Of a DNA stretch of 64,000 bases, positions 12,896 through 63,841 are shown one piece after another. The notes beneath the pieces are model-generated. The model saw nothing but the letters and a program-made list of their open reading frames with translations. It searched no databases and was not told the DNA's origin. The position numbers and the translations under genes were made by a program. How positions within the stretch are numbered: position 1 is the stretch's first letter; each line of letters starts with the position of its first letter. Source of the DNA: Kiritimatiellia bacterium (GTDB lineage Bacteria; Verrucomicrobiota; Kiritimatiellia; RFP12; UBA1067); assembly GCA_033812795.1 (NCBI GenBank), contig JAPXSY010000006.1:16755-80754 (forward strand), given 5' to 3'.

Positions 12896-13356
12896 TCATT
12901 TCCCCCTTCCGCTCACCCCATGGCGCACGAAAGGTCAAGATGCGTAAAAGCAAGATAGGAAAACTATAAAGGAACTGCCTTGACACGGCAAGACCGTATA
13001 AGAACTTAACAACCTATACCGTGTAACCTGTAACCTGAAAACCGTCCCCGTCAGCCATTAGCTATTGCAACACCTTTAACCCTCTGAACGTCAACAAGTA
13101 AGCTTTTCCGATTCAACGGAAACCCCCACAGACACACGGTTTTCGGCGGATCGAGAAAGCGTAACATCCTCTGAACTAAAACGTTGAAGGCGTTTCCCCC
13201 CCGTAGCCTGTGCGGTCCCGCTTCCGTCCACATATCATGAGAAGTGGACAGCCCTGCACAGAACCAGCGGGAACCATTCGAGGTTTGCGTTACGGTTTTG
13301 GTTTCTCTGCTCGTCGGGTCATGGAGTTCACCTCATTCCACGCACCCGGCGTCTTG

Positions 13357-44181: not shown

Positions 44182-45112
44182 ACCCGCGGCTCTCGATCGT
44201 GACCCAGCCGTTGTAGCCGATCTCATCGATCACCTTGCGCACGGAGCGCCAGTCCACGCTGCCTTTTCCGATCGGCACGAAATCCCCCTCGTTCTTCTTT
44301 TCGCGGTCGATTTTGAAATCCTTGATGTGAAGTTTCACGATCTGGGAACCCAACGCGCGCAGCCACTCCTCGGTCGGGGCGTACCGCACGTTGTTGCCGA
44401 GGTCGAAGTAGGCTTTCACCCACGGGTTGTCAAACGACCGGACAAACGCGGCCGCGAAATCCGGCAGCACCCAGAGATTGTTCCACACATTCTCCAGCGC
44501 GATGATCACCCCTTCGCGCGCCGCGACAGGAATCAGTTCCTCAATCGCGCGCCGCGACATCTCGGTCGCCTGATTCTGCGCGGCGATGTACTCGGCAAAC
44601 GGCGCGTTGTCCCCCTCGACCACCGACGTGACGCGCAGCGTCCGGGGATCAAACGCAATCCGGAACTGCGACGGCTTGGGCATGGTGCCGCCCACCCTGC
44701 ACGGCACCAGCAGGATAACGGAGGATCCATACGTTGCCGTGAGGCGGATCATCCTCTTGACGTCCTCGATCGATTTACGCCGCTGGGCCTCGTCCGAGCT
44801 GTTGAAATTCGTCCACCCGCCCATGAAAGAATGGATGGCGAGTCCGTGTTTCGCGGCCGTCAAACGTCCTTGGATCGCCTGTTCCTCGGTCACGTTCTTA
44901 TTGGACAGTTCGACACCGGGAAAGCCGGCCTTGGCGATCCGCTCACAGGTCTTGTCATCCGCCACACCCGCAATTAACGCCTTGTACAGCGTGGTCCGGA
45001 ACGCGCATGCGCCCCCCCCCTCCTGCGCGACCCCGAAACGCGGCATCCCCGTCACTGCCCCGGCTGCCGCCACACCCATCATGAATGCCCTGCGGTTCAT
45101 CTGCATGTCCAT
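44123..45112 (-). CDS. Tat-secreted sugar-phosphate isomerase/epimerase (xylose-isomerase-like TIM barrel)
   Basis: The twin-arginine signal is MNRRAFMMGVAAAGAV. The barrel carries the AP-endonuclease-2/XylA-like fold (IKLHIKDF...). Confidence 0.65.
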   Translation of the reverse strand: MDMQMNRRAFMMGVAAAGAVTGMPRFGVAQEGGGACAFRTTLYKALIAGVADDKTCERIAKAGFPGVELSNKNVTEEQAIQGRLTAAKHGLAIHSFMGGWTNFNSSDEAQRRKSIEDVKRMIRLTATYGSSVILLVPCRVGGTMPKPSQFRIAFDPRTLRVTSVVEGDNAPFAEYIAAQNQATEMSRRAIEELIPVAAREGVIIALENVWNNLWVLPDFAAAFVRSFDNPWVKAYFDLGNNVRYAPTEEWLRALGSQIVKLHIKDFKIDREKKNEGDFVPIGKGSVDWRSVRKVIDEIGYNGWVTIESRGFTDAEHSALMDRFFAGQGA

Positions 45113-45471: not shown

Positions 45472-48048
45472 TTGGCAATGCCCAAAATGGGGGTAAGCGG
45501 GATGAATCGAAATGCGGGAATGTTGTTGGCGATCGTGCTTTCATTGCAAGTCAGGGCAGCGGGTGATCCGGCAGCGGTAGCGGCGTGGGAAAAGTCGGGA
45601 CGCGCGGAAACACTCGAATGGTTCAAACGCCATTGGTTCGGCGTGCGCCCGGCGGAACGTTTGGCGGATCAAGAGATCGGCGAGGATTACGTCGCGTGCC
45701 ACGGCGGGCAGATCAGGATCAACATTTACGTGAAGCTTCCGGAAGGCGCGAGTGCCGAGAACCCGGTGCCGGCTTTCATCTTCGGCGACCACTACAATCC
45801 CAAGACAAGCAGAACCAAGACAGACACGATGCCGGGAATCCCGACGAACGCGATCGTCTCGCGCGGCTACGCCTACATCCGGTTCAATTTCAATGACGTG
45901 ACGCCCAACACCAACCAAGGGTGCCACGACCCGTCAAGCGCCAACATGAAACTCGGCGGAATGGGCAATCCCGACAGCTGGGGCACGATCTCGGCTTGGG
46001 CGTGGGGTTTCTCTCGCGTAATGGACTGGGTGGAGACACGGCCGGAACTGGATGCGAAACGCATCGCGGTAATCGGACACTCCCGCGGCGGCAAGACCGC
46101 GCTATGGGCCGGATGCACTGACCAACGCATCGCGCTCACGATTTCGAACTGTTCCGGTACCGGCGGGGCGCGTTATTTGCATATGCCGCTCAAAGGAATG
46201 GAAACGCTGGACTGGATGAAAGACCATGCGACGCGGCACTGGTTCTGTCCGAGCTGGATACCGACCTATCGCAACCGCGAGACGGAAATCGAGCATGATG
46301 CGGACGAAATGATCATGCTCATCGCGCCGCGGCGAGTCTACGTGGCAAGCGGGTCGGAAGATAGCTGGGCAGGTCCCGCAGGCGAGTTCGAATCGGCCAA
46401 ACGCGCGTCGGCGCTCTGGGAAGCCTATGGACACAAGGGGCTTTCGCTCGACACGTTCCCGGTGCCGGGTACGGTCGACCACTCCGGCCGGGTCGGATAC
46501 CATTTGCGTCCGGGAGCGCACGCGATCAGGCCGTGGGACTGGGACCGCTACATGGACTTCATGGACAAACATCTGCCGGGGCCGAAAAAGGCACCCCCGA
46601 AAGCGATGGAGCCCGCGGCACCGGAATCGCAACGTGTCCAATCAGAGGCCATCCTCGCGTGGATCAACGCCTTGGAAGCCTTTTTCGACGGCGGCGAGCA
46701 AGGCTCTGTTCACGGCTTTTCGATCCTCCGGCACGGCAAAGTGATTGCCGAGGGCAGTTGGAAACCGTTCGACACGCTGCATGAGACACACATGCTCTAT
46801 TCGCTCTCGAAAAGCTTTGCCTCGACCGCGATCGGATTGCTGGTGGATGACGGCAAGCTGGACTTGGACGAACGGATCACTGACCTCTTTCCGGAATACG
46901 TTCCGGCGGAACCATCCGAAAACCTGAAGGCGATGCGTGTGCGCGATCTGCTCTCCATGAATGTCGGCACGAGCCATGCCGATCCGCACAAGAAAGACCC
47001 CGGCGGCGATTGGGTGAAGATGTTCGTCACCAACGTGATCGACGGCAAGCCCGGCCAGGCTTTCAGGTACGACAGCAGCGCCACCCATGTGCTGGTCGCG
47101 ATCGCCGAGAAGAGAAGCGGCAGGACGTTTTTGGATTTCATCGGGGAGCGGCTCTTCGACCGGATCGGCATCGGGAAGAATGCCTGGACCACTTATTCGC
47201 CGACCGGTATCGCTTGCGGCGGATGGGGGCTCAATCTGACAACCCGCGACCTGGCGCGGTTTGGACAACTTTATCTGCAGCGCGGTGTCTGGAACGGCGA
47301 AAGGGTCTTGTCGCGAGAGTGGGTAGAACTCGCGACAGCCCGGCACACCTGGAACGGCGGGATTGTCGGCACGCGTCCGGATGACGACTGGGCGCAGGGG
47401 TACGGCTTCCAGTTCTGGCGCTGTGTTCCCGAGGGCGTTTACCGTGCGGACGGGGCTTATGGCCAATACACGATTGTGTTGCCCGATCAAGATATGGTGG
47501 TGTCAATGCACGCCGGGGTCAAAAGCATGGGCAAAATATTAAAGCTGACCTGGGAACACCTTTTGCCCGGAGTCAGGAACGTCCCGTTGCCGGTGAACAC
47601 GGTCGGTGAGGAAGCGTTGCAGAAACGTCTTGGCGGTCTCGCCATTGCCCCGGTAAAAGGCTCGGTCGCGGAAGGCGCGTATTTCGGCCGGGAACTCGCT
47701 CTCAAGGAAAACAATCGCGGCATCAGGTCAATCCGCCTCGACCGCGAAGGCGAAGGATGGAAGTGTACGCTCGTGACCCGCGCCGGGGAAAACGCGTTCC
47801 CGGTCGGATGCGGCGTTTGGGCAAAAGGCACGATCAGGATCGATACGGAGAAATACGAAAAGCCTGGCGGACTTATCGGAGTGCAGCCGACGGTGGCTTC
47901 GGGTGGCGTGGATGCGGACGGCGTCTTCCGCATGAAGGTTTTCCTGACCGGAACAACCGCTTACCTTTCGTTCGAAATCTCAGAAAAGCAGATTCTGGGC
48001 CGACTTTTTGCCATAGACGGATGCCGGTTTGAGGGGAAGACGGAATAA
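45472..48048 (+). CDS. Secreted two-domain hydrolase: an N-terminal alpha/beta-hydrolase (glucuronoyl-esterase/acetyl-esterase-like) and a C-terminal beta-lactamase-fold serine hydrolase
   Basis: A signal peptide comes first. The first domain has the nucleophile motif GHSRGGKTALWAG. The second domain carries S-x-x-K (SLSKSF), a YxN-like element and further class-C-like elements. Confidence 0.65.
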   Translation: MAMPKMGVSGMNRNAGMLLAIVLSLQVRAAGDPAAVAAWEKSGRAETLEWFKRHWFGVRPAERLADQEIGEDYVACHGGQIRINIYVKLPEGASAENPVPAFIFGDHYNPKTSRTKTDTMPGIPTNAIVSRGYAYIRFNFNDVTPNTNQGCHDPSSANMKLGGMGNPDSWGTISAWAWGFSRVMDWVETRPELDAKRIAVIGHSRGGKTALWAGCTDQRIALTISNCSGTGGARYLHMPLKGMETLDWMKDHATRHWFCPSWIPTYRNRETEIEHDADEMIMLIAPRRVYVASGSEDSWAGPAGEFESAKRASALWEAYGHKGLSLDTFPVPGTVDHSGRVGYHLRPGAHAIRPWDWDRYMDFMDKHLPGPKKAPPKAMEPAAPESQRVQSEAILAWINALEAFFDGGEQGSVHGFSILRHGKVIAEGSWKPFDTLHETHMLYSLSKSFASTAIGLLVDDGKLDLDERITDLFPEYVPAEPSENLKAMRVRDLLSMNVGTSHADPHKKDPGGDWVKMFVTNVIDGKPGQAFRYDSSATHVLVAIAEKRSGRTFLDFIGERLFDRIGIGKNAWTTYSPTGIACGGWGLNLTTRDLARFGQLYLQRGVWNGERVLSREWVELATARHTWNGGIVGTRPDDDWAQGYGFQFWRCVPEGVYRADGAYGQYTIVLPDQDMVVSMHAGVKSMGKILKLTWEHLLPGVRNVPLPVNTVGEEALQKRLGGLAIAPVKGSVAEGAYFGRELALKENNRGIRSIRLDREGEGWKCTLVTRAGENAFPVGCGVWAKGTIRIDTEKYEKPGGLIGVQPTVASGGVDADGVFRMKVFLTGTTAYLSFEISEKQILGRLFAIDGCRFEGKTE

Positions 48049-48051
48049 ATT

Positions 48052-48565
48052 GGTTTCAGGTTTCTGGGTTTCAGGGTTTCAGGGTTTCTGGGTTTCATCC
48101 AAATCGGGGTCGGGATCGCTATCGGGATCGCTATCGGGTTTCAAGGTTTCTGGTTTCAGGGTTTCAAGGTTTCATCGCTATCGGGATCGCTATCGGGATC
48201 GCTATCGGGTTTCAGGGTTTCAAGGTTTCTGGTTTCTGGTTTCAGGGTTTCAGGGTTTCAGGGTTTCAAGGTTTCATCGCTATCGGGATCGCTATCGGGT
48301 TTCAAGGTTTCATGGTTTCATCGGGGTCGGGATCGCTATCGGGATCGCTATCGGGTTTCAAGGTTTCTGGGTTTCATCGCTATCGGGATCGCTATCGCTA
48401 TCGGGATCGATCATTTCACCACGGAACACCACCGCCTCACAGCCTCACACCCTCACAGTCTCACAGTCTCACAGCCTAACAGCCTAACAGCCTAACAGCC
48501 TCACAGTCTCACAGTCTCACAGTCTCACAGCCTAACAGCCTCACAGCCTCACAGCCTCACAGCCT
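48052..48565. repeat. Composite minisatellite array of about 510 bp. Blocks of 7/8-mer GG(G)TTTCW and 12-mer GGGATCGCTATC interleave, followed by about 17 copies of the 8-mer CCTMACAG/TCTCACAG.
   Basis: It is directly visible and begins 4 nt after the stop codon of the 45472..48048 gene. It lies between convergent genes. It has no spacers, so it is not CRISPR. Confidence 0.9.
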
Positions 48566-48656: not shown

Positions 48657-50939
48657 TTATAACCCCTTCTGGTTTTTTCCGGCTTCAAGAAGCGTGACGG
48701 GGCCGTTCACCGCAAGGGCCACATAGACCTTGCCGTCTTCCCGTGTCTGCGTCTTCACGCACGAGGCGGATAACCCCGCCGCCGGCAGCATCCCCTCCCG
48801 GAAGACGAGCGTGAAGGACTGGGGTTTCTTGACCGTCGCGTTCGGTGTCAGGCGCAACGTCGCGAGTCGGCCGTCCTTGACACAGGCGTCGGCAAGGAGG
48901 CCTCCATGCGCCGGCAGCCGGAAGGCGTAATTCTTCCACTCGTCCGGCACACCGATGCCAAGCCGCAACTCATCCCCGGCGTTATGCAGGAGCATGTGGC
49001 ACAGGGCGACAAGCACATTGCCCGAGGCGGTCGAGAACCAGGGATGCGCGACAACCGTGCCGGGCTCGTTGATCTCGAAGGTCTCGCCGAACAATCCCGT
49101 CACGCCAGCGGCCTCGCGCAGCAGTTTGACCGGCTCCACGTTGTCTTCCAACAGGGTCATGGCAACCGCCATCTTGCCCGCATACCAAGGACAGATTTGT
49201 TTGCCGACCGGATACATGTTGCCAGCGAGGCGGCCGTCCCGAATGAAGCGGTAGGCCGCTTCACGCTGCAAGTCGTTGCTTTTGTCAAAGATCGGATACG
49301 GGAAGAGCCCTCCCAAGGTGGCCACGCTGGGAACCGTGCAGTTTTTGTAAGCGATGTAAGCTCCGTCGCGATGCGGCAGCGAGGCAACCAACTTGTCAGC
49401 CGTTGTTCTGAAATCCGCCGCCTCATCCAGATTCATGTGAAGCCGTTCAGCCGCATCCGCTGCGGCCCGCAAGGTGTAGATCGCGCCGCAGGTGGTCATG
49501 AACGGTCGCTCGCGCGCCGGGCCAAGGCGCTCCAGATCAGTGCACTTGCCGATGTACCACGTGCCGTCGGAATCCTCATACACCCAGTGCGAGCGGTAAT
49601 AGCGGGCACACTCGATCAGAACCGGATACCCGACTTCCTTGAGGTATTCTAAATCCCCACTGTAAAGGTACTGCGTCCAAACGCTTTTCGCGATATTGGA
49701 CATGTGGAAGATGTGGTCTAGCCAGAAGCCCTGCGGCGCTCCCTCCACGCGCCCGTCCTCATACGATTCCCATAGATAGCGGGCGCCATACTTGCCTTTT
49801 CTGCTGTAATGGCTCACACGGGCGCATGCGGTTTTCAACAGGGCTTTACGGAACTCCGGACACCGGCGGGCCACGGCGACGTGATTGGCGAGCAACAACC
49901 CCTGATGGCAGAACATCTCGTCCCATCCGAAGTATTTCCCATGCCAATGCCCCGGGAAGATCCCCACGGGGAAAGACCAGCGCGTGGCATTGACGCGCAG
50001 GTGGTACTGCGCGACATCGATCATACGCTGGATTTTCGGCTCCGGTACCTCAATGGACGATTCGCCGTGATATGCGGCCCAAGCCTGCTCATGCTCGCGC
50101 AACAGGGCGTTGAACCCGTTGTCCCAAACCCACTGGCGTGTGTTTTGGATGCGGTCGGCAAGCTTGCCGGAATCTAGCGTGTCTTCATACTGAATGAAGA
50201 ACGTGGTGACTTTCCGCTCACCGGGCTGAAGGGTAAATGTGGCGGAAAGCGTTGCGTCCCGGTCGTTCTTGACCGTGTAGTGTGCCGGTTCGTCCGCTCC
50301 TTTATAGGCCGCGATCATCGCATCACGGATGTCATTCCCGTAAGTCCGGCAGGAATAGACGGCGTAACGCGTTTCTTTACGCCACGCCCACGTTCCGGTC
50401 AGGCGCGGATGTTTGGGCGCCTGAAAGATGTAGTCCAACGTGACCTCCAGCGGCGCGGTTGCCGTGGAGACCAATGTGCGGCGGAAGGCGATCAGGTTAC
50501 GGGTAAGCGGCACGATGATCTCGCTCTCGATGCGGAGGCCGTTCGTGTAACTGTTGCGGCTGAACAGTGTCGCGCGCCGGACATCCAGCTCCTGTTCCCA
50601 GACATCCGGATAGTCACGCAATACCCCGCCGATGATAACGCGGTGGTTGAACTTGCCGAACTCGAACAATCCGCCATCGGGGGGCGGCAATCTCCGGCCA
50701 GCCCAGTATATGGCCGGTCTGATCCCGGCATAGCTGCGCTCGCGCATACCGCACGTCCAGTCAACGGTCATGCTCAACTCACCGTTACCCAACAGCGGGG
50801 GCACGTAGCCCTGCGGACAAGCATCCCCCGTGCCACAGACCAGCCCCTTTAACGGATCGCCCCCTGTCGCGGCCGAGACCGCCAAAGGCAGGAGGCCCAG
50901 CGCCACAAACAACATATGCCGCATCCTTTGCGTTCCCAT
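48657..50939 (-). CDS. Secreted (alpha/alpha)6 six-hairpin glycoside hydrolase-like protein, family uncertain
   Basis: 760 aa. A signal peptide is present (MRHMLFVALGLLPLAVSAA). It has a beta-sandwich N-domain followed by an alpha-toroid core (…GKYFGWDEMFCHQGLLLANHVAVARR…). It lies in a carbohydrate-active gene context. Confidence 0.45.
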   Translation of the reverse strand: MGTQRMRHMLFVALGLLPLAVSAATGGDPLKGLVCGTGDACPQGYVPPLLGNGELSMTVDWTCGMRERSYAGIRPAIYWAGRRLPPPDGGLFEFGKFNHRVIIGGVLRDYPDVWEQELDVRRATLFSRNSYTNGLRIESEIIVPLTRNLIAFRRTLVSTATAPLEVTLDYIFQAPKHPRLTGTWAWRKETRYAVYSCRTYGNDIRDAMIAAYKGADEPAHYTVKNDRDATLSATFTLQPGERKVTTFFIQYEDTLDSGKLADRIQNTRQWVWDNGFNALLREHEQAWAAYHGESSIEVPEPKIQRMIDVAQYHLRVNATRWSFPVGIFPGHWHGKYFGWDEMFCHQGLLLANHVAVARRCPEFRKALLKTACARVSHYSRKGKYGARYLWESYEDGRVEGAPQGFWLDHIFHMSNIAKSVWTQYLYSGDLEYLKEVGYPVLIECARYYRSHWVYEDSDGTWYIGKCTDLERLGPARERPFMTTCGAIYTLRAAADAAERLHMNLDEAADFRTTADKLVASLPHRDGAYIAYKNCTVPSVATLGGLFPYPIFDKSNDLQREAAYRFIRDGRLAGNMYPVGKQICPWYAGKMAVAMTLLEDNVEPVKLLREAAGVTGLFGETFEINEPGTVVAHPWFSTASGNVLVALCHMLLHNAGDELRLGIGVPDEWKNYAFRLPAHGGLLADACVKDGRLATLRLTPNATVKKPQSFTLVFREGMLPAAGLSASCVKTQTREDGKVYVALAVNGPVTLLEAGKNQKGL

Positions 50940-50984
50940 GACTAATGCCTTCGTCTTTTGTCTCCTGTCCCCCCCCCTCTTCCC

Positions 50985-52716
50985 TCACTCAACAAAAACA
51001 GGGTCCGCACGCATGCGGGTGATCCCGTTCTCATTAAACGTATCCACCGTGAACCAATAGGGCGCCCCCGCATTCAGGCTGTAAATGTCGAGCCGCGTTT
51101 GACCGCGGATTTCAAAGGGCGTGAACATCGCATCCGCTGCCACACCGTAACGTACGACCGCGCCTTTGGCGCCTGCCCCGCCCTCCCATTCCACCGTCAC
51201 ATGCCGCCGGTCGGCCTTCCCGCGAATCACCCGAACGTTGCTTGCCGGCGCGGGAGGCGTTCCCTCTCCGGTTCCGAAAACGCGAAGACCCGCAACAGCA
51301 AAGTATCCTGACTTCGTACCGCAATTTATAAGCCGAAGGTGCCGCGTGGCCACAGGATTTTCCAGCTCGTGATAAGCGTTCATCCGGTCCTTCGGGTTTT
51401 GGGATTGGTCGACCCTGGTTACCCAGTGCACGCCGTCGTCGGAGCAGTCCACCCGATATTTTTGAACAAAATCCTGCGGCAAACTGTTTGTGCTCCTCCG
51501 CACCTCTTCCGTCTCCGCGAAATGAACCTGTATCGCGCACACCCGTTTAATCGCGCCGAGATCGACACCGATCCAAGCGTTCGAGTCCGATCCCTTGGGC
51601 TGCCACCAGGATCGGATACTCGTGTCGAAGGCGCATCGGGCGAGACGGGCGCCGCTATGTTCCGACGAAGCGCTGACGGCCTTCCCGCAACCCAGTTCCA
51701 TCCAGCCGACAAGATTCCCTTTCCCGGGGCTGGGATTTTTGCCGGGCAGATACTGCGGCAGGTCACCAAAGGCCGTTTCCGCAAACAACCGTCCTGCCGC
51801 ATCGATGCGGGCGGGAAAAAGGACCACACGACGCTCGACACCGCGAATCACACCGGTGGCGACATGCCAAAGGCGTTGGTGCTTGTCTTGAAAGGTCGCC
51901 CCGTGGCCGGCACCGGGAATAAACCCCGTCGGCTTGAACGAGAAAGGACTGTACGGTTCATACACGAACGGTCCCATCGGCGAACGGGAAACGCAAACGC
52001 CATCACCATACGTGTCAAACTCGGTACCGGGTGCCGCGTATTGGTAGTAATACTTCCCCCCGTGTTTATTCATCCAGGACCCCTCGATCCACGGCTCCTT
52101 GTCGGAGCGGTCGAGACCATGTCCCTGATTGGTGTTGCCCCGCACCTCCCAACCGCGTTCGCTCTCAAGCGGCCGAACGCATTCCGCCGCGGCACCGATA
52201 CGCTTGAACTGGTTGGTCGGATCAAGCTCGATGACGGTAGGCGCCCCTCGTCTTTTTCCGGCGGCGCAACCGGCGTAAAGAAACACGCGACCGTCGTCAT
52301 CGGCAAAAAGGGCGGGGTCCACATTGCTTTTTTGCGCGTTGACTAACTCCCATGAGTCCTCATCCTTGGGCCGCGAACTCTTGAAGATACCCGCACCCGA
52401 AGCCGTGAAATAAAGCTCCCCCCGATATTCCATGGCCGTGGGCGCATAGTTCGCCAGAGGCAGGTTGGGCGGCGACACTTTCCGCCAGCAGACAAAATCA
52501 GGCGACCACCAGTAGCCACCCGATTTTGAGGCGAACAGGTAATAATCTCCCTTATACGTCAGACAGACGGGATCCGCGCCTTCGTGAAACCCGAGCTCGT
52601 TTCGGAAGCCGTAATCGAGATCAAGCGGGTTGCAGAACGTCATGGGCTCCCGGCAAGATCCCCATGCCGCGACCACGCCGACCACCCCAAACACAAACGC
52701 CCTGTTCTTCATCTTC
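50985..52716 (-). CDS. Secreted GH43-family (5-bladed beta-propeller) glycosidase with a C-terminal F5/8 type C (discoidin) domain and an FN3-like domain
   Basis: MKMKNRAFVFGVVGVVAAWGSC is a signal/lipobox-like start. GH43-like blocks are present (FCNPLDLDYGF…GDYYLFAS…). The discoidin domain reads QVHFAETEEV…HLRLINCGTKSGYFAVAGLRVFG. Confidence 0.65.
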
Positions 52717-52928
52717 ATATTAAAAAATGCCTCGGGGCTGCGCCCTCGATGCCGACGAAGACAGGATACAACGTACCGGGTCAGTTCGTCCAATGGATTC
52801 CTTGATCGTCGGATAGTCCGGATCACCCTTAATCTTACGAACGATATTGACGCCAACGCCAAAATCGCGCACAATTTTAATGATCCTGATAAAAGGGTTT
52901 TGTGAAAATCACCTCCGAGGAGTCTTGT

Positions 52929-55900
52929 ATGAAAAGCAGGCTGAGCTTTGATTCTTGTTTCATCTCCGCTTGGACATTTGCCGTGGCGGCGTTCTGTTTC
53001 CAGATGGGTGCTCAGGCGCAAACCTCCGTGAGTCTCTACAAGGGGCCGATCACCGGAAGTTCGCCTGAGAATCCGGTGGACTTTTCGGTGACCTCGTACT
53101 GGGATCCGGCGGGCATGCCGTCCGGCACAACCGCCGAGGCGAAGTTCGCGAAGGCGACGATGGGCACGCTCACCGAGCAGATGTACGTGGCGTTGCCGAA
53201 TGACCTCACGCTTTTGACGCTGCGTGCCGGCGGCGGGAAGATCATCAACTTCATCGGCGAGAACGTCAGCCTCGGCACACTCCACTATCACGACTACCTC
53301 GGCTACGCCTCGGTGCTCTACGCGACGGCCCACGCCTTCGGGAACGATATCTCCAGTGTGTGCGGCGCCTTCGCGGGCGATGTCGTCAATGCGATCAGCG
53401 GCAAGATGGTGTTCGCCGGCGGCGAGGTCGAGCACCATCACCACTGCTACGCCAATTCCGATTCCGAGACGATCCTCAACGCCCTGCCGACCAACTTCTG
53501 GACGCACGGCTCTGCCAACCTCCATCTCTATGCGTCCCGCCAGTGTGGCGAGGTGACCGGGCTTTGGAAGGCGACGAAGGATTCAAAGCACCTGAAGTAT
53601 GTCGGCGCTTCTGCGATCCACGTGGTGGCGCCGGGCGCGAAGGTGACCTGCCCGGGGATCGTGCCGACGGGTGCCTACGTCCGCCGCTGGTTCTCTAACG
53701 CGAAGACGATCGAACTTTCTGCGGCGGCGCTGGACAACGCCGATTCGACCAACTTGACCTTCCATGCCTACAATCCGTCCGTTCGCCAAGACGTCGTGAC
53801 CTGGCAGAAGCAGGGGGGAGCCCAAAATGCGATTCTCAACAAGTGGAGCACCGGGCAAAATGCGGTTCTGGAGGTTGATACGTTGCAGGGCGGCAGCGCG
53901 GACGCGATTACGTTCGACGCGGAGGGGAACTGCTATCCCTGGAGGGTCATTATCCACAATGGCAAGATCTTGAGTGCGGTTAATTTCAAGTATGCGGATA
54001 TCGAATTCGCCGACAATCCCTCCGGTGTGCGCGGTCTTCCGAATTCCGCCGTCAGCGTCACCTCCTCGTCCAAGTCCTCGACCGTCACCGTGCCGGGCGG
54101 GGAGAACACGGCCTATTTCAAGACATTCGGCCCCATTGCCGCAGGCGGAGGGCTCATCAAAAGGGGGCGGGCGCGCTCGTCGCGAAACTCGGCGACGATC
54201 TTTTTGGTTCGCTTGAAGTCGCGGAAGGTTCGGTCTCCTTCACCAACGCGGTCGACACCGCCAAGATCTACGAGCTCGGCTCATTGACCCTCGGCGCAGG
54301 GACGGTCTTTAACGTCGACGGGGGCGTGACGCTTAACGTGAAGATGATTTCCGTCGGCACGGGGGCGCGGATTACCGGCACGGGCACGATTGCCTTCCCC
54401 AACCTCTCCATGATCCCCGAGGGCGTGATCGCCTCTTCGGTGAAGATCGGGATCGCGGGCGTCAGCGGCGGTCTCGTACACGGCGAGATCGTCCCCGCCG
54501 TGGTGGGCGATCCGGCGTTTTGGCTGGACACGGCTGCGGCAGATTCGCTTGTCACAGAGGAGAACGGCGCTGTGACGAACGTCGTGCGCTGGAACGACTG
54601 CCGCAAGGCATCGCCGGATGACGGCTACATGTTCGCGACGAACTGCTGGGCAAAACCAACGCTCGCGAACATGCTGATTCAGAATTACACTCACCGGTCA
54701 GAGGGAGCCCGGATCAACAGTTTCAACCGCAACTACGTGAGGATCGTCGCGAATCCCGCCTCGCTGGCCCACTGCGAGGCGCTCGTGTGGAGCCGGAAGC
54801 TGACGGGGATCAAGTCCGTTTTCCTCGTGATGAGCGCGGCGGACGGCGGCGGATGCGTTCTCGGCAACACGGCCAAGCTCGGCGACTTCGGGCGCGGCGC
54901 CACGGGGCAGGCCGCCATTTTCTATTCCGGAACCGATGCCTCGCCGGAGAAGGTGTACAAGGCGCCGATGTACATAAACGGCGTCAAGGTCGTCAACCAT
55001 TTCACGTTCGGTCCGTACACGGGTTTCCCGAACAACTGGCGCCCCTTCCTCTTCGAGGTGCATCCGACGGCGGACGGCGGCGAGGCGGACGCCTTCGGCA
55101 TGCAGGGGACCAACCGGCTCGATCTCGCGGGCGGACAGCGGATCTTCGAGTGTATCCTCTACACGAACGAGCTCACCCGCACCGAGCAGGCGCAGGTGGC
55201 CGACTACCTCACGCGCAAGTGGTTCAACGCCTGCTACGGCGGCGCGTACGCGCTGGACGAGGCGGAGGAGACAATCGACGCGACGACGTTCGACCGTCTC
55301 GACATCGTGTCCGGCGATTACGCGGTGGAGGCGATTACCGGCACCTCTTTCGTGAAAACCGGCGCGGGCGGGATGTATGTCGCCTCGCTCACCGGCGGCA
55401 CGGATCTCACAATCCCGGAAGGTTCGATGGTGATCTCCTCCGCGAAGGCGGCGAGCTTCGCGAACCTGCCGGTGGACGACAGCGGCGTCTACATGCACCT
55501 CGACGCGAACAACCTCGAAGGTTCCACAATGAGCGAGATCGACGGCAAGGGTGAATGTGTGAAAATCTGGAAGAGTCTCCGCGGCGCCACGCTCCGCACG
55601 GCAACGAATTTCTCCACCAATCACCCGGCGCTGAAGACGACAGGCGGCTCCGCGCGCATGAAAGACGGCATGAAGTACGTTGACCTCGGCGAATTCCGGG
55701 AAGTGCCGACGACAACCGGATACGGTACCGTGAACGCCAATTGCGGTGAGACGTATCACTTCGTGAAGTCCGACGGCATCCGTGCGATGTTCATGGTGTT
55801 CGGCGGCACCGGTCCCCTTGTAGGGAATAATGGCATTTATCAAAATTATGGGGAGGGCGGCCTCTACCGCGGTGACAACGCGGCCGCACTGGGACCGGCG

Positions 55901-56656
55901 GCGCCGCTGATCTATCCCAATGGCTGGTATGCGAATTCCTATTCGCTCGCCAAGGGGTACTGTACATACGTGAAGGTAAACGGTGTTGAAACCGATCCGA
56001 CGACAACGGGGCTCGACAACGATCTCAATGTCATCTCGCTCAGGACCTACATCGATCCGGTGAGCGCCTCGGCTTTCAACTGTATCCACTACAACAACAA
56101 GTTCGGTGGCGCGCAGTATGGCGAGGTGATGTTCTACACACGGCCGGTGTCGCGTCCCGAGGCGCACCGCATCGAAACGTACCTTCGTAATAAGTGGTGC
56201 CGGGAGGGTTATTCAACGGCCGGTTACGAGGCGGCCGTGGCGGGCAAGGTGATGCTGGGGACGAACGCGATGCTGAAAGTGGTGGGCGGCGAGCCGCTCA
56301 CGGCAACGGGTCTCGGCGGCGGTGGCACGGTCACGGGTGACGTGACACTGCAGAACAATGCGGAGCTGACGGTGGTGATCACCGACGGGGTGGCGTCCTC
56401 TCAGACGATCGAAGGTGAACTCGTCCTCCCGGTGAACGGCACGATCAAGGTCGTCGGCGATTTCACCGGCCTCGCCTTTGGAGATTCCGATGTCTTCAAG
56501 TCTGCCTCGATCCATGCGTCGACCGATCTGAGCGGATGGGGCCGCAATCTCACCCAGGTTGTCCATCCCGAAAAGCGCAACGTCTCCTTCAGGGTGGTCG
56601 AAGGCGCGATCCGCATGACGGTCAGCAAGTCGGGAACGACATTCATCCTCCGGTGA
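52929..56656 (+). CDS. Giant secreted beta-strand-repeat (autotransporter-associated/adhesin-like) surface protein of about 1,240 aa. It is split into two ORFs by a -1 frameshift in an A4G5 homopolymer near 54158-54166.
   Basis: ORF 52902..54287 carries a signal peptide (MKSRLSFDSCFISAWTFAVAAFCFQMGAQA) and ends in Arg/Ser-rich nonsense. Frame +2 reads through as ...LIKKGAGALVAKLGDDLF...LGSLTLGAGTVFNVDGG into ORF 54284..56656. Module-ending motifs QVADYLTRKWF and HRIETYLRNKWC repeat. An HHHH run is present. Confidence 0.6.
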
Positions 56657-56816
56657 TCGTGAAAACGATACCGCAGATTCGGCACCTGTAAGCAAAGGGG
56701 TGCGGGCTCCGTCCGCATTACTTCGCCGGGGTTTTTGAGAACGAGGGGCGGTGGCGACGTTTTCAGCGCAACCCAATGTGCAAACACGCCTCCTTCGCCC
56801 CCAAGGAGAAACGCAC

Positions 56817-58916
56817 ATGACAAAGATGAACGATACGCCCATTGCGACCGCCGTGGCTGTGTTGCTACTGGCGATAGCGTGTGCCTCGAAGGTCGCGGCG
56901 GACGAATTGCAGGACTGTGAGCTGAAGCGACTGCCGCTCGGGTCAATCTGCCCGGAGGGATGGCTCAAACACCAGCTCGACAAAATGACGGACGGCATCT
57001 GTGGGCGACTTTACGAATACGGCAAGTTCCTGAACCCCACCAACGGCTGGATCTCGCGCGCCGAGCAGGGCGAACTCGACAACCAGCGCCACTGGAACGA
57101 GGGCACCGGATGGGAGGAACAGCCCTATTGGTTCCGTTCGTTCGTGAAGCTCGCCGCGCTGACCGGTAACGAACGGATGTTGGGCGTCTGCCGCGACTGG
57201 ACGGAGAAGATGCTCGCGACGCGCGATCCGGACGGCTGGTACGGTCCCCAGCCGCTCAAGCGGGTACGGCTTAAGGACGGGACTTTCATGCAGGACATCT
57301 GGGGCCACATGGTGATGAACGAGGCGCTCCTTTCGTGGTATGACTACTCCGGCGACCGGCGCGTGATGGCCCTGCTTTCCGGCTTCTGCGATTTCTGTCT
57401 TGCCGTTCCCGAGGACCGCTTCATCCACCCGCCGCAGGGCAACGGTTACGCGCCGGCCTCGGGATGGCTCCCCCTCATCCAGAAAGCGCGCGCCGGCGAT
57501 ATGATCTCAACGCTGTTCCGGCTTTATGACGTGACGAAGGATGCGAAGTTCACGCGGCTTTCGGACAAGGTGTGGCGGCGTTACTACGTTAAGCGCGAAT
57601 CGCTCTTCCTCAACATCCACAACGTTAATTTCTGCCAGATGTTCTCCTATCCTTCGATCTACGCGCGGCGCACTGGCGATCTCGCGCTTGCCGAGGAGAG
57701 CGAGTACTGGCTGAAGCAACACTGGATGACCTGGGGACAGATGCCGCGTTGCGCGTTCGCGGCGGATGAGAACTGCCGCGTCGGCTGTATCGATCCGCGT
57801 TACGGACTGGAGAGCTGCTCGTGGGGTGAATACGTGCGGAGCTTCCAGAACCTCTCCGACCACCGCGCCGAGACGAAGTGGGCAGACCGCACCGAGGATG
57901 TGGTCTTCAACCACGCTCCATGTGCCTACACGCCGGATTGGAACGAGGTCCACTACATCACCGCCTGCAACCAGACGGTGATTGATGCGCGCACCGACCA
58001 CGACTATGCGAACCATCCGCCGATGAATGCCTATTCGCACACTGAGTACCGCTGTTGCCTCTACAACGCGGCAATGCCGTTCCCGCTCTTCACCGAGAAT
58101 CTGGTGAAGCGCGCGAGGGACGGCGCACTCGTCTTCTGGATGTACGCGCCGTGCTCGGGGAAAACGGACGGTGTCGAATGGAAACTCGACACACGCTATC
58201 CGTTCCGCGAAACCGCCCGGCTGGCGGTGAACGCGGCGAAACCGCTTGTCCTGCGCTTCCGCGTACCCGCTTGGGCAAAGGCGTTCTCCGTCGGCGGGAC
58301 CGCCGCGACACCCGGCGTGAGAATGCTGGACGTGAAGGTGCCCGCCGGCGGATCTACGCTCGACATCGCGATGAAGGCGGAGTGCGAGTTCACACCGTGG
58401 GCACGACAGAACGGCATTTCGGTCGACCGCGGCCCGCTCACCTATTCGGTGGCGATCGGCGAGCGGTATTCCAAGGTGTCGGTGGTGAAGGGCGATAGCG
58501 GTTCCGTCATCTGGGTGGAGGGAAACAACAACCGTGATGCCGACCGCGTCTACACCGAGATCGCGCCGACCACGCCTTGGAACTACGGCATCGATGTTAC
58601 CGCGAAGCCGGTCTGGAAGGAGTGCGTGTGGAACGACGACTGCTTCGTCTCGTCCAACGCCTGCTGCGAGCTGTCGGTCCGCTGCCGACGGATCCCCGAG
58701 TGGACGCTGCAAGACAACGAACCGGCACGGCTCCAGTTGTCGCCCGCGTATTCGAGCGAGCCGCTCGAAACGGTGCGCTTCACGCCGCTCTGCTGCCAGC
58801 GGCTCCGGCTCTCGGTGCTGCCGCAGGTTACGGACAACGCGACGCTCGGCTACCGCTGGAAAAAGGTTCCGCCGACGACGGACCGCAAAAACCGCGCGAA
58901 AATCTTCAGCCCGTAA
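56817..58916 (+). CDS. Secreted glycoside hydrolase, probably GH127/DUF1680-like (beta-L-arabinofuranosidase-type alpha6/alpha6 barrel)
   Basis: Signal peptide: MTKMNDTPIATAVAVLLLAIACA. About 700 aa with several conserved Cys and an alpha-toroid-like central region. The family call is by architecture only. Confidence 0.4.
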   Translation: MTKMNDTPIATAVAVLLLAIACASKVAADELQDCELKRLPLGSICPEGWLKHQLDKMTDGICGRLYEYGKFLNPTNGWISRAEQGELDNQRHWNEGTGWEEQPYWFRSFVKLAALTGNERMLGVCRDWTEKMLATRDPDGWYGPQPLKRVRLKDGTFMQDIWGHMVMNEALLSWYDYSGDRRVMALLSGFCDFCLAVPEDRFIHPPQGNGYAPASGWLPLIQKARAGDMISTLFRLYDVTKDAKFTRLSDKVWRRYYVKRESLFLNIHNVNFCQMFSYPSIYARRTGDLALAEESEYWLKQHWMTWGQMPRCAFAADENCRVGCIDPRYGLESCSWGEYVRSFQNLSDHRAETKWADRTEDVVFNHAPCAYTPDWNEVHYITACNQTVIDARTDHDYANHPPMNAYSHTEYRCCLYNAAMPFPLFTENLVKRARDGALVFWMYAPCSGKTDGVEWKLDTRYPFRETARLAVNAAKPLVLRFRVPAWAKAFSVGGTAATPGVRMLDVKVPAGGSTLDIAMKAECEFTPWARQNGISVDRGPLTYSVAIGERYSKVSVVKGDSGSVIWVEGNNNRDADRVYTEIAPTTPWNYGIDVTAKPVWKECVWNDDCFVSSNACCELSVRCRRIPEWTLQDNEPARLQLSPAYSSEPLETVRFTPLCCQRLRLSVLPQVTDNATLGYRWKKVPPTTDRKNRAKIFSP

Positions 58917-59042: not shown

Positions 59043-60338
59043 CTATGGCAAAGTCCTGAAAAGGCGGAAGCCAAGGCTAAAGAAGCGACTGCCCGGGGGA
59101 TCTTGGTAACGGAACGCCGAACGGCAATACGACGCGGAGTCGTACACGCTTCCGCCTCGAAACACGCGCTTCGAACCTGAATCCGCCCCGTCCGGATCCG
59201 TCCCCGTTTCTGCGCTCGTCGTGCCCCAGTTCAGACACCACTCCCACACGTTGCCGTGCATGTCGTAGAGTCCCCAGGCATTGGGGCGTTTACTGCCGAC
59301 CAGTTGTGCGGCTGTCGGAGGCGTGGGGGCACTGAACTTGTACCATCCCAACGCATTCAGATGCTCGTTGGTGTTCCCGTTGTTATTGTCCTCGGTTCCG
59401 GTGTATTTCGCTTTCGTGTTGCCGTCGTTGAACACGGTCGTGGTCTTGGCCCGGCAGACGTACTCCCATTGCGCCTCGGTCGGGAGGTCGAAATCTCCGA
59501 TACCGGTTTTCGCCCTCAGCCTACCCATAAAAGATGTCGCATTCACGATTCTGTTGGATGGCCAATTCACCGCCGGATCGTCCGCATTCGCCGGATCCTC
59601 GCGGATCTCATAATAGGAGACCGTGTGTTTAGCCTGCGTAGCCGTACCGCCCGTCGTGCCCATGACATGGTCCCACTGCTTCTGCGTGACCTCGAAGACA
59701 CCGGCATACATATTCTTTGTGAGGGTCACATTATCGGTTCCGTTCTGTGTGTCCCCCTGCTGGAAGGAGCCCGCCGGTACGCGCCGCAGCACCAGCTTGT
59801 CGGTCTTGTAGAGGTCGTTGGTGGTCACTCCGGTCCAGATGACCGATTCCACAATCGTCTCTCCCACCGCATTCGTAATGGGATTGCGCATCCACGCGCC
59901 CCAGAGGCCGTTCGTGAGATCCTCTTCGTAAACATACTCGATCTGCTTGTCCGCTCCCGCCTCTTTCGTCAGGTCCACGATCATGTAGAGCGGCGGCGTT
60001 ACAGGCGTGAGGGTCACTTTGAACTGTGACAAAACCTCTTCATTGGTGTACTGGCTTTGCGTCGGATCCCAGACGATCCGGCGCGCGCCCTGCCCGGAAA
60101 CACCGTAAAGATCGCCGGAGAGCTCGTTGTCGCCCAGCACGAGCGGTATCGAGCCGTTGTGGGCCGTCACCGCGATATCCACCCCCTGCGTCGCATTCGC
60201 GATCACATAATCGATGTCCACCAGCTTGCTCCACGGCCAACGCTGACGCACGCTGACATGGCTGATGTCAGCCGCGAGGCTGTTCAACGCCAGACACGCC
60301 GCCAAACTCGCCAATGCCGTTTTCATTGTTGTTGTCAT
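59043..60338 (-). CDS. Secreted protein with a C-terminal formylglycine-generating-enzyme (FGE/SUMF1) domain
   Basis: Signal peptide: MTTTMKTALASLAACLALNSLAA. FGE motifs: RVPAGSFQQGDT…AWGLYDMHGNVWEWC…RGGS…. Confidence 0.75.
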   Translation of the reverse strand: MTTTMKTALASLAACLALNSLAADISHVSVRQRWPWSKLVDIDYVIANATQGVDIAVTAHNGSIPLVLGDNELSGDLYGVSGQGARRIVWDPTQSQYTNEEVLSQFKVTLTPVTPPLYMIVDLTKEAGADKQIEYVYEEDLTNGLWGAWMRNPITNAVGETIVESVIWTGVTTNDLYKTDKLVLRRVPAGSFQQGDTQNGTDNVTLTKNMYAGVFEVTQKQWDHVMGTTGGTATQAKHTVSYYEIREDPANADDPAVNWPSNRIVNATSFMGRLRAKTGIGDFDLPTEAQWEYVCRAKTTTVFNDGNTKAKYTGTEDNNNGNTNEHLNALGWYKFSAPTPPTAAQLVGSKRPNAWGLYDMHGNVWEWCLNWGTTSAETGTDPDGADSGSKRVFRGGSVYDSASYCRSAFRYQDPPGSRFFSLGFRLFRTLP

Positions 60339-60448
60339 TGCCGTTTCTCCATTCTTCTTTCTTTGACCGACATGCATCGACTTGAGACGACCTGAACCAT
60401 CCCGAGTCAAAATCCCGATTTCAAACACACTTTAGAACTTCCCGATTC

Positions 60449-61150: not shown

Positions 61151-61381
61151 GTCCCCTCCCTCCAATTATCATTGTTGATAATAGTAAACCGCATCCCCAG
61201 AAGCGTGTCAAGCCATCGAGTTGATTTCAGTTCTGCTCTTTTTTTTCTCACGCGGAGGCGCGAAGGGTACGAGGTTTTTTGAGGGGGACGTTGTCCCGAA
61301 CCGTCGAAAACACCGCACCCCGCCAACACACGTCCGGCCTACGCCTGCGCCCCCCCCCGACGGGCCGAGGCGAGGGTAGCG

Positions 61382-62905: not shown

Positions 62906-63841
62906 ATGCCGGGCCGGGTTTGGATACAAAAGAGCAAAGTGAAGGTCCTTTTCCTGTTCATCGATGGCGTGGGACTGCGCCCACCCGCAACGGACAATCC
63001 GGTCCATTCCGGCATCTGCCCGACGCTGTGCCATCTTATCGAACAGCACGGGGTGTCGATCGACGCGTGTCTGGAGGTGACAGGCTTGCCGCAAAGCGCC
63101 ACCGGACAGACGGCTCTGTTCACGGGTGTCAATGCCTCGCAGATCATGGGACGTCATTGTGAAGGCTTTCCCGGTCCCACGCTCCGCAAACTCATCGAGC
63201 AGGGCAATCTGTTCATGGATCTCTCGCGCAAGGGGCTGCGCTGCCGATTTGCGGACGCCTATCTGGTAGACAGCGTGGACGAACTGCGGGGCCGCCGTTT
63301 CAAATCCGTAACAACCGTGATGGCGCTGACCCAGCCCGAGACGATCTCCATTCAGGATGACCTGATGGCGAATCAGGCGGTCTTCCATGACATCACCCGT
63401 AAGAGTCTGCAAGAAAAAGGGTTGGCCATTCCGCTGGTCACCCCGCCGCAGGCCGCCGAACACCTCATCGAGGTCGCGTTGGCGAATGACTTCACCCTGT
63501 TCGAGTTTTTCCAGACGGATCTGGCCGGCCACTCATGCCAATACGATCAGGCATGCGAAACACTCCGCACGCTGGATCTCTTTCTCGACATGGCCGTGAG
63601 ACTCTGCAAGACCACCGGTTTGCTGCTGATCCTCACCAGCGACCACGGCAATATCGAAGACATGGGCACACGCGGCCACACCCGCAATCCGGTGCCGCTG
63701 ATCGCCCTTGGCCCCGGCGCGGACGAAATCAAGAACCTCGCGTCCAGTCTAACGGACATCACTCCGCGCCTGACGCGTCTGATGGTTCCGGGACACACCT
63801 CCATGCCGCGGACAGCCCCCCCCGCTGATTCCGCCCAGTAA
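62906..63841 (+). CDS. Alkaline-phosphatase-superfamily 'metalloenzyme' domain protein (ApgM-type phosphoglycerate mutase/phosphopentomutase-like)
   Basis: VLFLFIDGVGL is the N-terminal metal-binding Asp motif. ILTSDHGN is the C-terminal metal-binding motif. Confidence 0.55.
   Translation: MPGRVWIQKSKVKVLFLFIDGVGLRPPATDNPVHSGICPTLCHLIEQHGVSIDACLEVTGLPQSATGQTALFTGVNASQIMGRHCEGFPGPTLRKLIEQGNLFMDLSRKGLRCRFADAYLVDSVDELRGRRFKSVTTVMALTQPETISIQDDLMANQAVFHDITRKSLQEKGLAIPLVTPPQAAEHLIEVALANDFTLFEFFQTDLAGHSCQYDQACETLRTLDLFLDMAVRLCKTTGLLLILTSDHGNIEDMGTRGHTRNPVPLIALGPGADEIKNLASSLTDITPRLTRLMVPGHTSMPRTAPPADSAQ

Follow-up and report, generated by a model that had tools for sequence, protein, structure and literature searches.

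In a stretch of 64,000 nucleotides (nt) from an uncultured Kiritimatiellia bacterium (the window, in whose numbering all positions are given), two adjacent open reading frames (ORFs) are the halves of one gene for a predicted exported protein of 1,242 amino acids (aa). They are separated by the loss of a single A from an ordinary run of five, within the codons of K411 and K412. We put the probability at about 80% that this A5 to A4 change has made the allele a nascent pseudogene, with a real, very recent and strain-specific loss of function. The frame is disrupted in comparison with intact alleles and orthologues, and the lesion is reproducible. An original prediction, made on the window sequence, had left phase variation, a pseudogene and a sequencing error side by side; it is the pseudogene that the evidence favours. 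In the window strain, translation from the normal start would give 411 native residues followed by about 41 nonsense residues, while the beta-helix, both lectin-like modules and the C-terminus would be left in a frame without signal peptide. Because the beta-helix begins at its first motif, and the deletion hits an invariant lysine of that motif, the exported A4 product would carry no recognisable module.

Two reading frames of one gene

In the ORF listing, ORF1 occupies 52902..54287 (+ strand, 461 aa) and ORF2 occupies 54284..56656 (+ strand, 790 aa). The frame of ORF2 is offset by -1 from that of ORF1 and is free of stops upstream as far as 53984; it reads ...KGAGALVAKLGDDLFGSLEVAEGSVSFTN..., a repeat-like reading that had been proposed and is borne out. 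From about 54161 the ORF2 frame continues as KGAGALVAKLGDDLFGSLEVAEGSVSFTNAVDTAKIYELGSLTLGAG..., and the ORF1 frame becomes RGRARSSRNSATIFLVRLKSRKVRSPSP.... If an A (or a G) is added to the A4G5 run, the two merge into one ORF without internal stops, 1,251 aa long from GTG 52902 and 1,242 aa long from ATG 52929; the joined product had thus been foreseen, with a length of 1,240 aa that needs a small correction. The peptide that spans the junction in the joined frame is …GGLIKKGAGALVAK…, also written LIKKGAGALVAK. A tblastn search of the window with the joined protein returned two collinear pieces and no paralogue.

Which start is used? A Shine-Dalgarno sequence GGAG, read at 52919..52922 (+), lies 6 nt 5' of ATG 52929, and gene calls on other public assemblies likewise start at the equivalent ATG. 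From this start the 5' gene fragment covers 52929..54287 (+) and encodes a 452-aa product (P0014). Its first 30 residues, at 52929..53018 (+), form a predicted Sec signal peptide (MKSRLSFDSCFISAWTFAVAAFCFQMGAQA, followed by QT) with a basic n-region, a hydrophobic core and an A-x-A site, and the N-termini of homologues are comparable, so we infer export. After 411 native residues the product runs through 41-42 out-of-frame residues (RGRARSSRNS...) to a TGA at 54285-54287. The nonsense stretch, first placed upstream of the break, therefore lies downstream of it, in the last 42 codons of ORF1. The rest of the gene, residues 412-1242, follows in the -1 frame at 54161..56656 (+), and was called as ORF2 (54284..56656) from a TTG start, with no signal peptide.

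The lesion itself was located by base-by-base comparison with three contigs that carry intact alleles (L001, L012 and L019). The string CAAAAGGGGGCGGG stands at 54158-54171, one base further on than the 54157-54170 first given for the run. Within it, AAAA at 54159..54162 (+) takes the place of the AAAAA that all intact alleles have, and GGGGG comes next at 54163-54167. The codons affected (AAA AAG, for K411 and K412) belong to the motif G-G-L-I-K-K-G-A-G-A-L, whose K411 and G413 do not vary across the family alignment.

Intact alleles and reproducibility of the deletion

Is the frameshift a feature of the genome? Among about 5.8 billion proteins searched there was a partial one of 987 aa (P0001, on L001; HOR98308.1, from a Kiritimatiellia metagenome-assembled genome) that spans the junction at 100% local identity. 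Its contig shares 99.8% identity with the window over 7.3 kb, with 12 single-nucleotide polymorphisms (SNPs) and two homopolymer indels, one being A5 against A4 at the tract and the other an intergenic C-run. The 90%-identity cluster also includes a complete protein of 1,242 aa (P0027, on L012) and a partial one of 970 aa (P0022, on L019), both intact at the junction. All three read ...GGGLIKKGAGAL... with A5G5, and since these intact alleles carry A5, the missing base is an A. The proposal that the two ORFs are one gene broken by a single-base homopolymer indel is confirmed in this way, and so is the continuity of the joined product, as the intact alleles and the homologues align straight through the junction.

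The A4 allele was counted on at least 16 contigs. The frameshifted product of 452 aa is recorded, in exact form, on 18 contigs, and the 10 places listed come from 10 accessions: ERZ27257451, ERZ27249270 and ERZ27249281 from ENA (k141 contigs), 3300010365, 3300028593 and 3300028568 from JGI, and SRR21487924, SRR8441380, SRR8441321 and SRR5007348 from Logan. These contigs, from three assembly sources, match the window at 100% identity over 3.3-7.4 kb, and the same sources yield A5 in other strains. The frameshift is therefore reproducible in several separate sequencing runs and three assembly pipelines. The allele counts rest on exact-protein look-ups; exact-DNA scans for the tract region in metagenome_contigs and genome_contigs, whether or not a variable gap was allowed, found 0 matches.

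Haplotypes and other lesions in sister strains

All contigs were aligned to the window and sorted into haplotypes, the sister strains being 98.8-99.8% identical in nucleotide sequence. Haplotype A, consisting of the window and L002-L011, has A4 and is broken. Haplotype A0 (L019; ERZ795030) equals A over 2,990 bp except that it has A5, and is intact within its contig. Haplotypes B (L001, intact to residue 987) and C (L012, intact over 1,242 aa) also have A5. A C/T SNP at 54271, 110 nt from the tract, would allow the tract to be phased to the haplotype. As every A4 contig falls on haplotype A and every other haplotype has A5, one deletion suffices to explain the distribution. The absence of any SNP against L019, together with an ORF2 that carries no further lesions, makes the deletion very recent.

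The two remaining haplotypes have A5 and are broken elsewhere. Haplotype E carries an inserted 170-bp element behind 54441, flanked by a GGT duplication; its left junction is seen in L018 and its right junction in L020 and L021. Haplotype D (L013-L017) has the SNP background of E together with a CA duplication after 53164 (GGCAC to GGCACAC), which is present in 5 contigs and truncated the protein at 96 aa. L015 and L016 of this haplotype show the element junction as well, which brings the contigs with the insertion, seen from both sides, to 5. L018 carries the element alone, and its derivatives L015 and L016 carry the element plus the CA duplication; the step from E to D thus looks like a second lesion following the first, resembling decay after an initial hit. 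A further protein record (P0023, HPK38170.1), with a background like that of B, points to a deletion of one T (1 nt) near 53883. That record ends about 25 residues past the shift, and the deletion, which may be a contig-end artefact, is weak evidence. In all, the gene was disrupted independently at least three times by different kinds of lesion.

Do the neighbouring genes show similar damage? Over the 7-12 kb compared, all coding indels among the haplotypes are within this gene, and the remaining indels are intergenic. In the GH65m/95-like, GH43+F5/8C, GH127-like, FGE-sulfatase and saccharopine-dehydrogenase genes there were SNPs and no coding indel. Because sister strains carry independent lesions here while the neighbouring glycoside hydrolase (GH) genes are intact, the locus appears to have been repeatedly lost, not switched. 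Between the repaired window allele and that of L012, the ratio of non-synonymous to synonymous polymorphism (pN/pS) is 0.16, with 6 synonymous and 3 non-synonymous steps; these are signs that the gene was under constraint until recently, though only 9 substitutions stand behind the ratio.

The 170-bp element is a repeat resembling a miniature inverted-repeat transposable element (CGCACAGGCTAC...GGCTAACGTG), with terminal inverted repeats of about 17 nt (GGCTATTGCAACACCTT / AAGGTGTTGCAATAGCT). It folds as a strongly structured multi-stem (minimum free energy -67 kcal/mol, z -5.3), and an Rfam search with it gave no match. Copies lie at 13046-13215 of the window (- strand), at 6200-6369 of L018 and at 13938-14107 of L027. 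The window copy is 94% identical, intergenic and lacks the left arm; in other strains a 100% copy interrupts the target gene, and an IMG/VR contig ends in a further 100% copy. Contigs often break at this repeat.

The protein family

Scanned against Pfam and NCBIfam, the joined protein had 0 matches at E<=0.1. The profile search that had been suggested thus found no known domain, and the relatives came from phmmer: against 1.84 billion representatives there were 418 at E<=1e-3, 109 of them at E<=1e-30. Most are about 1,200-1,260 aa long and match from end to end. The joined protein, first described as giant, is thus of normal size for its family. None of the ten family representatives checked has a name. 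Homologues at about 25-40% identity align through the repaired junction, and two of them (on L022 and L025) encode the first motif as GTGAAGAACGGA or GTGAAGGACGGA, with no homopolymer. PATR (PF12951) was matched by 8 of 40 family members, with a best E of 4.4e-6, and its motif is visible in the joined protein. No LamG/ConA Pfam profile, such as PF13385 (Laminin_G_3), was matched by the joined protein or by the 40 family members. The family profile was also run against PDB sequences, which gave non-significant beta-helix noise only (T4 gp5, E about 0.09). A literature search on Kiritimatiellia autotransporter or LamG proteins found nothing relevant.

The closest homologue from another organism (P0028/P0177, 36-40% identity) is also split by a frameshift, into an N-terminal ORF of 193 aa and an ORF of 1,102 aa. 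The split is found in two separate assemblies (L023, 9480-10061 and 10001-13309; L024, 4677-5258 and 5198-8506) and is not at a homopolymer. Another homologue, P0034 (L025, 10001-19087; L026, 3355-12441), has directly downstream of it a 1,802-aa protein in which DUF4838, GH20 and GH28 domains are combined, and on its upstream side a divergent two-component system (HisKA_3 kinase and GerE-type regulator). A general synteny of the family with glycoside hydrolases was considered and rejected: one homologue adjoins the GH20/GH28 giant, two others do not.

Architecture of the intact protein

The intact protein would consist of an N-terminal region, PATR-like beta-helix segments, two ConA/LamG-like modules and a beta-rich C-terminus. 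Two G-x-L-V-K-x-G-x-G-x-L motifs, at residues 407-417 and 808-818, are invariant in the alignments. The second of them, F-V-K-T-G-A-G-G-M-Y-V at 55349..55381 (+), lies in the beta-helix linker between the modules, and its K810, G812 and G814 are invariant in the family. Module 1 (residues 525-765, 54500..55222, +) runs as a jelly roll from VVGDPAFWLD... to the helix ...ADYLTRKW, with E741, Y745, Y760, L761, K764 and W765 invariant in the family. Module 2 (residues 853-1090, 55484..56197, +), of the same ConA/LamG-like type, runs from GVYMHLDAN... to ...ETYLRNKW, with H857, D859, A860, W881, E1066, L1086, K1089 and W1090 invariant. The modules are homologous to each other (BLASTP E=3e-6), and both close with E-x-I-x-Y-T-N-x-L-x-x-x-E-...-Y-L-x-x-K-W. 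The two modules of the original prediction are thus real and end in Y-L-x-x-K-W (760-765 and 1085-1090), which is the part invariant in the family; the full E-x-Y-L-x-x-K-W ascribed to both occurs once, as ETYLRNKW (1083-1090), the first module having ADYLTRKW. The C-terminal region (residues 1091-1242, 56198..56656, +) was modelled as beta strands with a predicted local distance difference test score (pLDDT) of about 90-98, and ends in GTTFILR before the stop. G1236 and R1242 are conserved in it. All family members end in G-x-x-hydrophobic(3)-R/K (GTTFILR, GLRAIIR, GTTVIFR...; residues 1236-1242, 56636-56653 in the window), and this end matches no assignable sorting signal.

What folds do these regions adopt? 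An AlphaFold2 (AF2) model of the 790-aa ORF2 reached pLDDT 87.8 and a predicted template-modelling score (pTM) of 0.88. A model of the 987-aa partial allele, built on a 13-sequence alignment, had pLDDT 54 and was left out of the fold search. Fold matches included tapirin C-domains (11.6 and 10.9), AbnA domain 4 (11.1) and the PilC minor-pilin lectin module (10.6), then IgA1 protease, VacA p55, pertactin, Hbp, Ag43 and Hap (8.8-10.3), and also BoNT/TeNT Hc domains. Foldseek against BFVD gave 28 matches at E<=1e-3, the best at 8e-9, with the names ConA-like lectin/glucanase or LamG-like jellyroll. Both a right-handed beta-helix and a jelly-roll beta-sandwich were recognised in this way, the beta-helix segments being similar to those of autotransporter passengers and tapirins. 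The joined protein is thus modelled as a Sec-exported beta-helix scaffold bearing two ConA/LamG-like modules, plausibly a glycan-binding adhesin or capture protein. The domains and the neighbouring genes support the earlier view of a secreted, adhesin-like protein of beta-strand repeats amid glycan-active genes, and by inference the intact product is a secreted or surface glycan-binding protein, lectin-like or adhesin-like.

How does it compare with known proteins? Among the closest are the PATR proteins of the Planctomycetes, Verrucomicrobia and Chlamydiae (PVC) superphylum and autotransporter passengers. The joined protein differs from them in that it reaches no Pfam threshold, has no autotransporter beta-barrel or other recognised anchor, and has its beta-helix interrupted by two jelly-roll modules. 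For the 12-stranded beta-barrel of type Va autotransporters, there was no Pfam or NCBIfam domain and no barrel among the fold matches of the joined protein. Unlike the ConA/LamG lectins (Laminin_G_3, the PilC module, the N-domains of BoNT/TeNT Hc and the phage ConA-like lectin/glucanase), it has no sequence match to a Pfam LamG or ConA model, and the closing Y-L-x-x-K-W helix motif is specific to its family.

Probable loss of function and other explanations

The pattern resembles strain-specific pseudogenes and the recurrent loss of surface proteins: several lesions among strains more than 98.8% identical, intact neighbours, and signs that purifying selection acted in the past and that one lineage has undergone secondary decay. 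Some points weigh against a recent loss of function as we describe it. The A5 on the same haplotype (L019) fits an ancestor or a revertant equally well. The comparison rests on assembled contigs, and a low-level mixture of A4 and A5 within a sample is possible. Some of the 10 accessions may share studies or reactors, so that fully independent populations would be fewer than 10, and the window may itself derive from one of these accessions. The T deletion in P0023, which would be a fourth lesion, comes from one protein record. A secreted N-terminal fragment of 411 aa might keep some activity. Finally, glycan binding is read solely from fold similarity, the protein matches none of the Pfam and NCBIfam models, and its N-terminal 410 aa are poorly modelled (pLDDT 54).

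Why was the gene lost in several strains? One idea is that the losses were selected for, the protein being a receptor for phages or predators or simply costly; in a weaker variant, A5 and A4 toggle at low frequency. At least three knockouts by different routes in co-existing strains, and a closest other-species homologue that is also split, would agree with selection, which we regard as a possible but doubtful addition to the nascent pseudogene.

Could slipped-strand mispairing in A(4/5)G5 toggle the surface protein between OFF (A4) and ON (A5)? The lesion is indeed a 1-nt change of homopolymer length, a secreted adhesin-like product is of the class typically phase-varied, and L019 shows both states in one lineage. 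In having a surface-type protein whose frame is set by homopolymer length, the locus is like the contingency loci of Campylobacter (poly-G), Helicobacter (sabA/hopZ), Haemophilus and Neisseria. It is unlike them in its 5-nt, unconserved tract, in the confinement of length variation to one clonal lineage and in the unrelated lesions that hit the other alleles. Tracts in contingency loci usually count 7-8 or more G/C, or 9 or more A/T. The A5/G5 tract is well under these lengths, and the window holds 39 A5 and 14 G5 runs, and runs up to C9. Homologues encode the motif with no homopolymer. There is no homoplasy either: A4 occurs on one 100%-identical haplotype only, and five other haplotypes have A5. 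At least 10 of about 11 assemblies of the haplotype have A4, with no hint of a mixture, and the element insertion and the 2-bp duplication that broke other alleles are not readily reversible. The A5 to A4 change is thus probably no phase switch, and we regard phase variation as improbable.

Less probable still is a split gene that works, with ORF1 and a re-initiated ORF2 (TTG 54284) acting separately or as a complex. The geometry permits translational coupling, as the TTG of ORF2 overlaps the stop of ORF1 (ATTGA); ORF2 is undamaged, and the allele occurs in many samples. However, ORF2 has no signal peptide and starts inside the beta-helix segment that begins at residues 406-417, with about 40 residues lost, and no family member is split at this point. 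The intact ORF2 is equally well explained by a recent deletion, as L019 indicates.

Two last explanations deserve hardly any credence. A single-base homopolymer indel is a classic assembly artefact, and L019 has A5 on the same haplotype, which would suit a true genome with A5 and an intact gene, but such an error is hard to reconcile with the exact A4 allele on 18 contigs from different pipelines, with the A5 resolved by the same sources in other strains, and with the intergenic position of the other indels in the compared region. Programmed recoding, by a -1 ribosomal frameshift or by transcriptional slippage at the A run, would make a full-length protein of ~135 kDa from the A4 allele; a -1 shift at AAA-AGG would restore ...IKKGAG..., AGG may be a slow codon, and the -1 frame is open over the 300-nt overlap (53984-54287), yet this overlap holds no X-XXY-YYZ heptamer, neither tRNA re-pairs well at C-AAA-AGG, the A4 run is too short for transcriptional slippage (runs of about 8-9 or more are needed), and the intact alleles, like all homologues, consist of a single ORF, which means that the shift is not conserved.

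Genomic neighbourhood

The gene lies among genes for glycan-active proteins, a context that is suggestive only. An ORF of 858 aa (45472-48048, +) combines a CE15-like glucuronyl esterase domain of fungal type (PF22244) with a beta-lactamase-family domain (PF00144). It is followed by a GH65m/GH95-like gene (48657-50939, -) and a GH43 gene with an F5/8 type C domain (50985-52718, -). On the other side are a GH127-like gene (56751-58916) and a gene for an FGE-sulfatase-domain protein (59043-60428, -). Between two convergent genes, the interval 48052-48565 consists almost entirely of short tandem repeats, (GGTTTCAG/GGTTTCAA)n alternating with (ATCGCTATCGGG)n, then (CACAGCCT)17; its length varies by strain, with many indels in L013 and L018.

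Longer homopolymers than the A5 run are present in the window, namely C9 runs at 50969-50977, 45012-45020 and 61350-61358, a C8 run at 63816-63823 and a T8 run at 61239-61246. The C9 and C8 runs are apparently non-coding and stand just 5' of minus-strand genes, whose coding strand therefore shows them as poly-G. About 30 nt upstream of the GH65m/95-like gene, the run at 50969-50977 differs among strains, with the states C9, C8 and CTC6. For repeat-mediated expression variation the C9 and C8 runs are better candidates than the A5 run.

Implications

Annotators should treat the two hypothetical proteins as a single gene, flag it as frameshifted and not polish the frameshift away, since it is real. 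The mechanism is an ordinary one and nothing new; what is mildly interesting is the population pattern and the uncharacterised family. One uncultured species offers a clean natural series in which intact alleles stand beside a nascent pseudogene with one hit and a decaying one with two, and the series concerns a large, unnamed family of PVC type with beta-helix segments and two ConA-like modules. Should the repeated losses prove adaptive, one would consider the protein a candidate for a phage receptor, or for a costly adhesin, of Kiritimatiellia.

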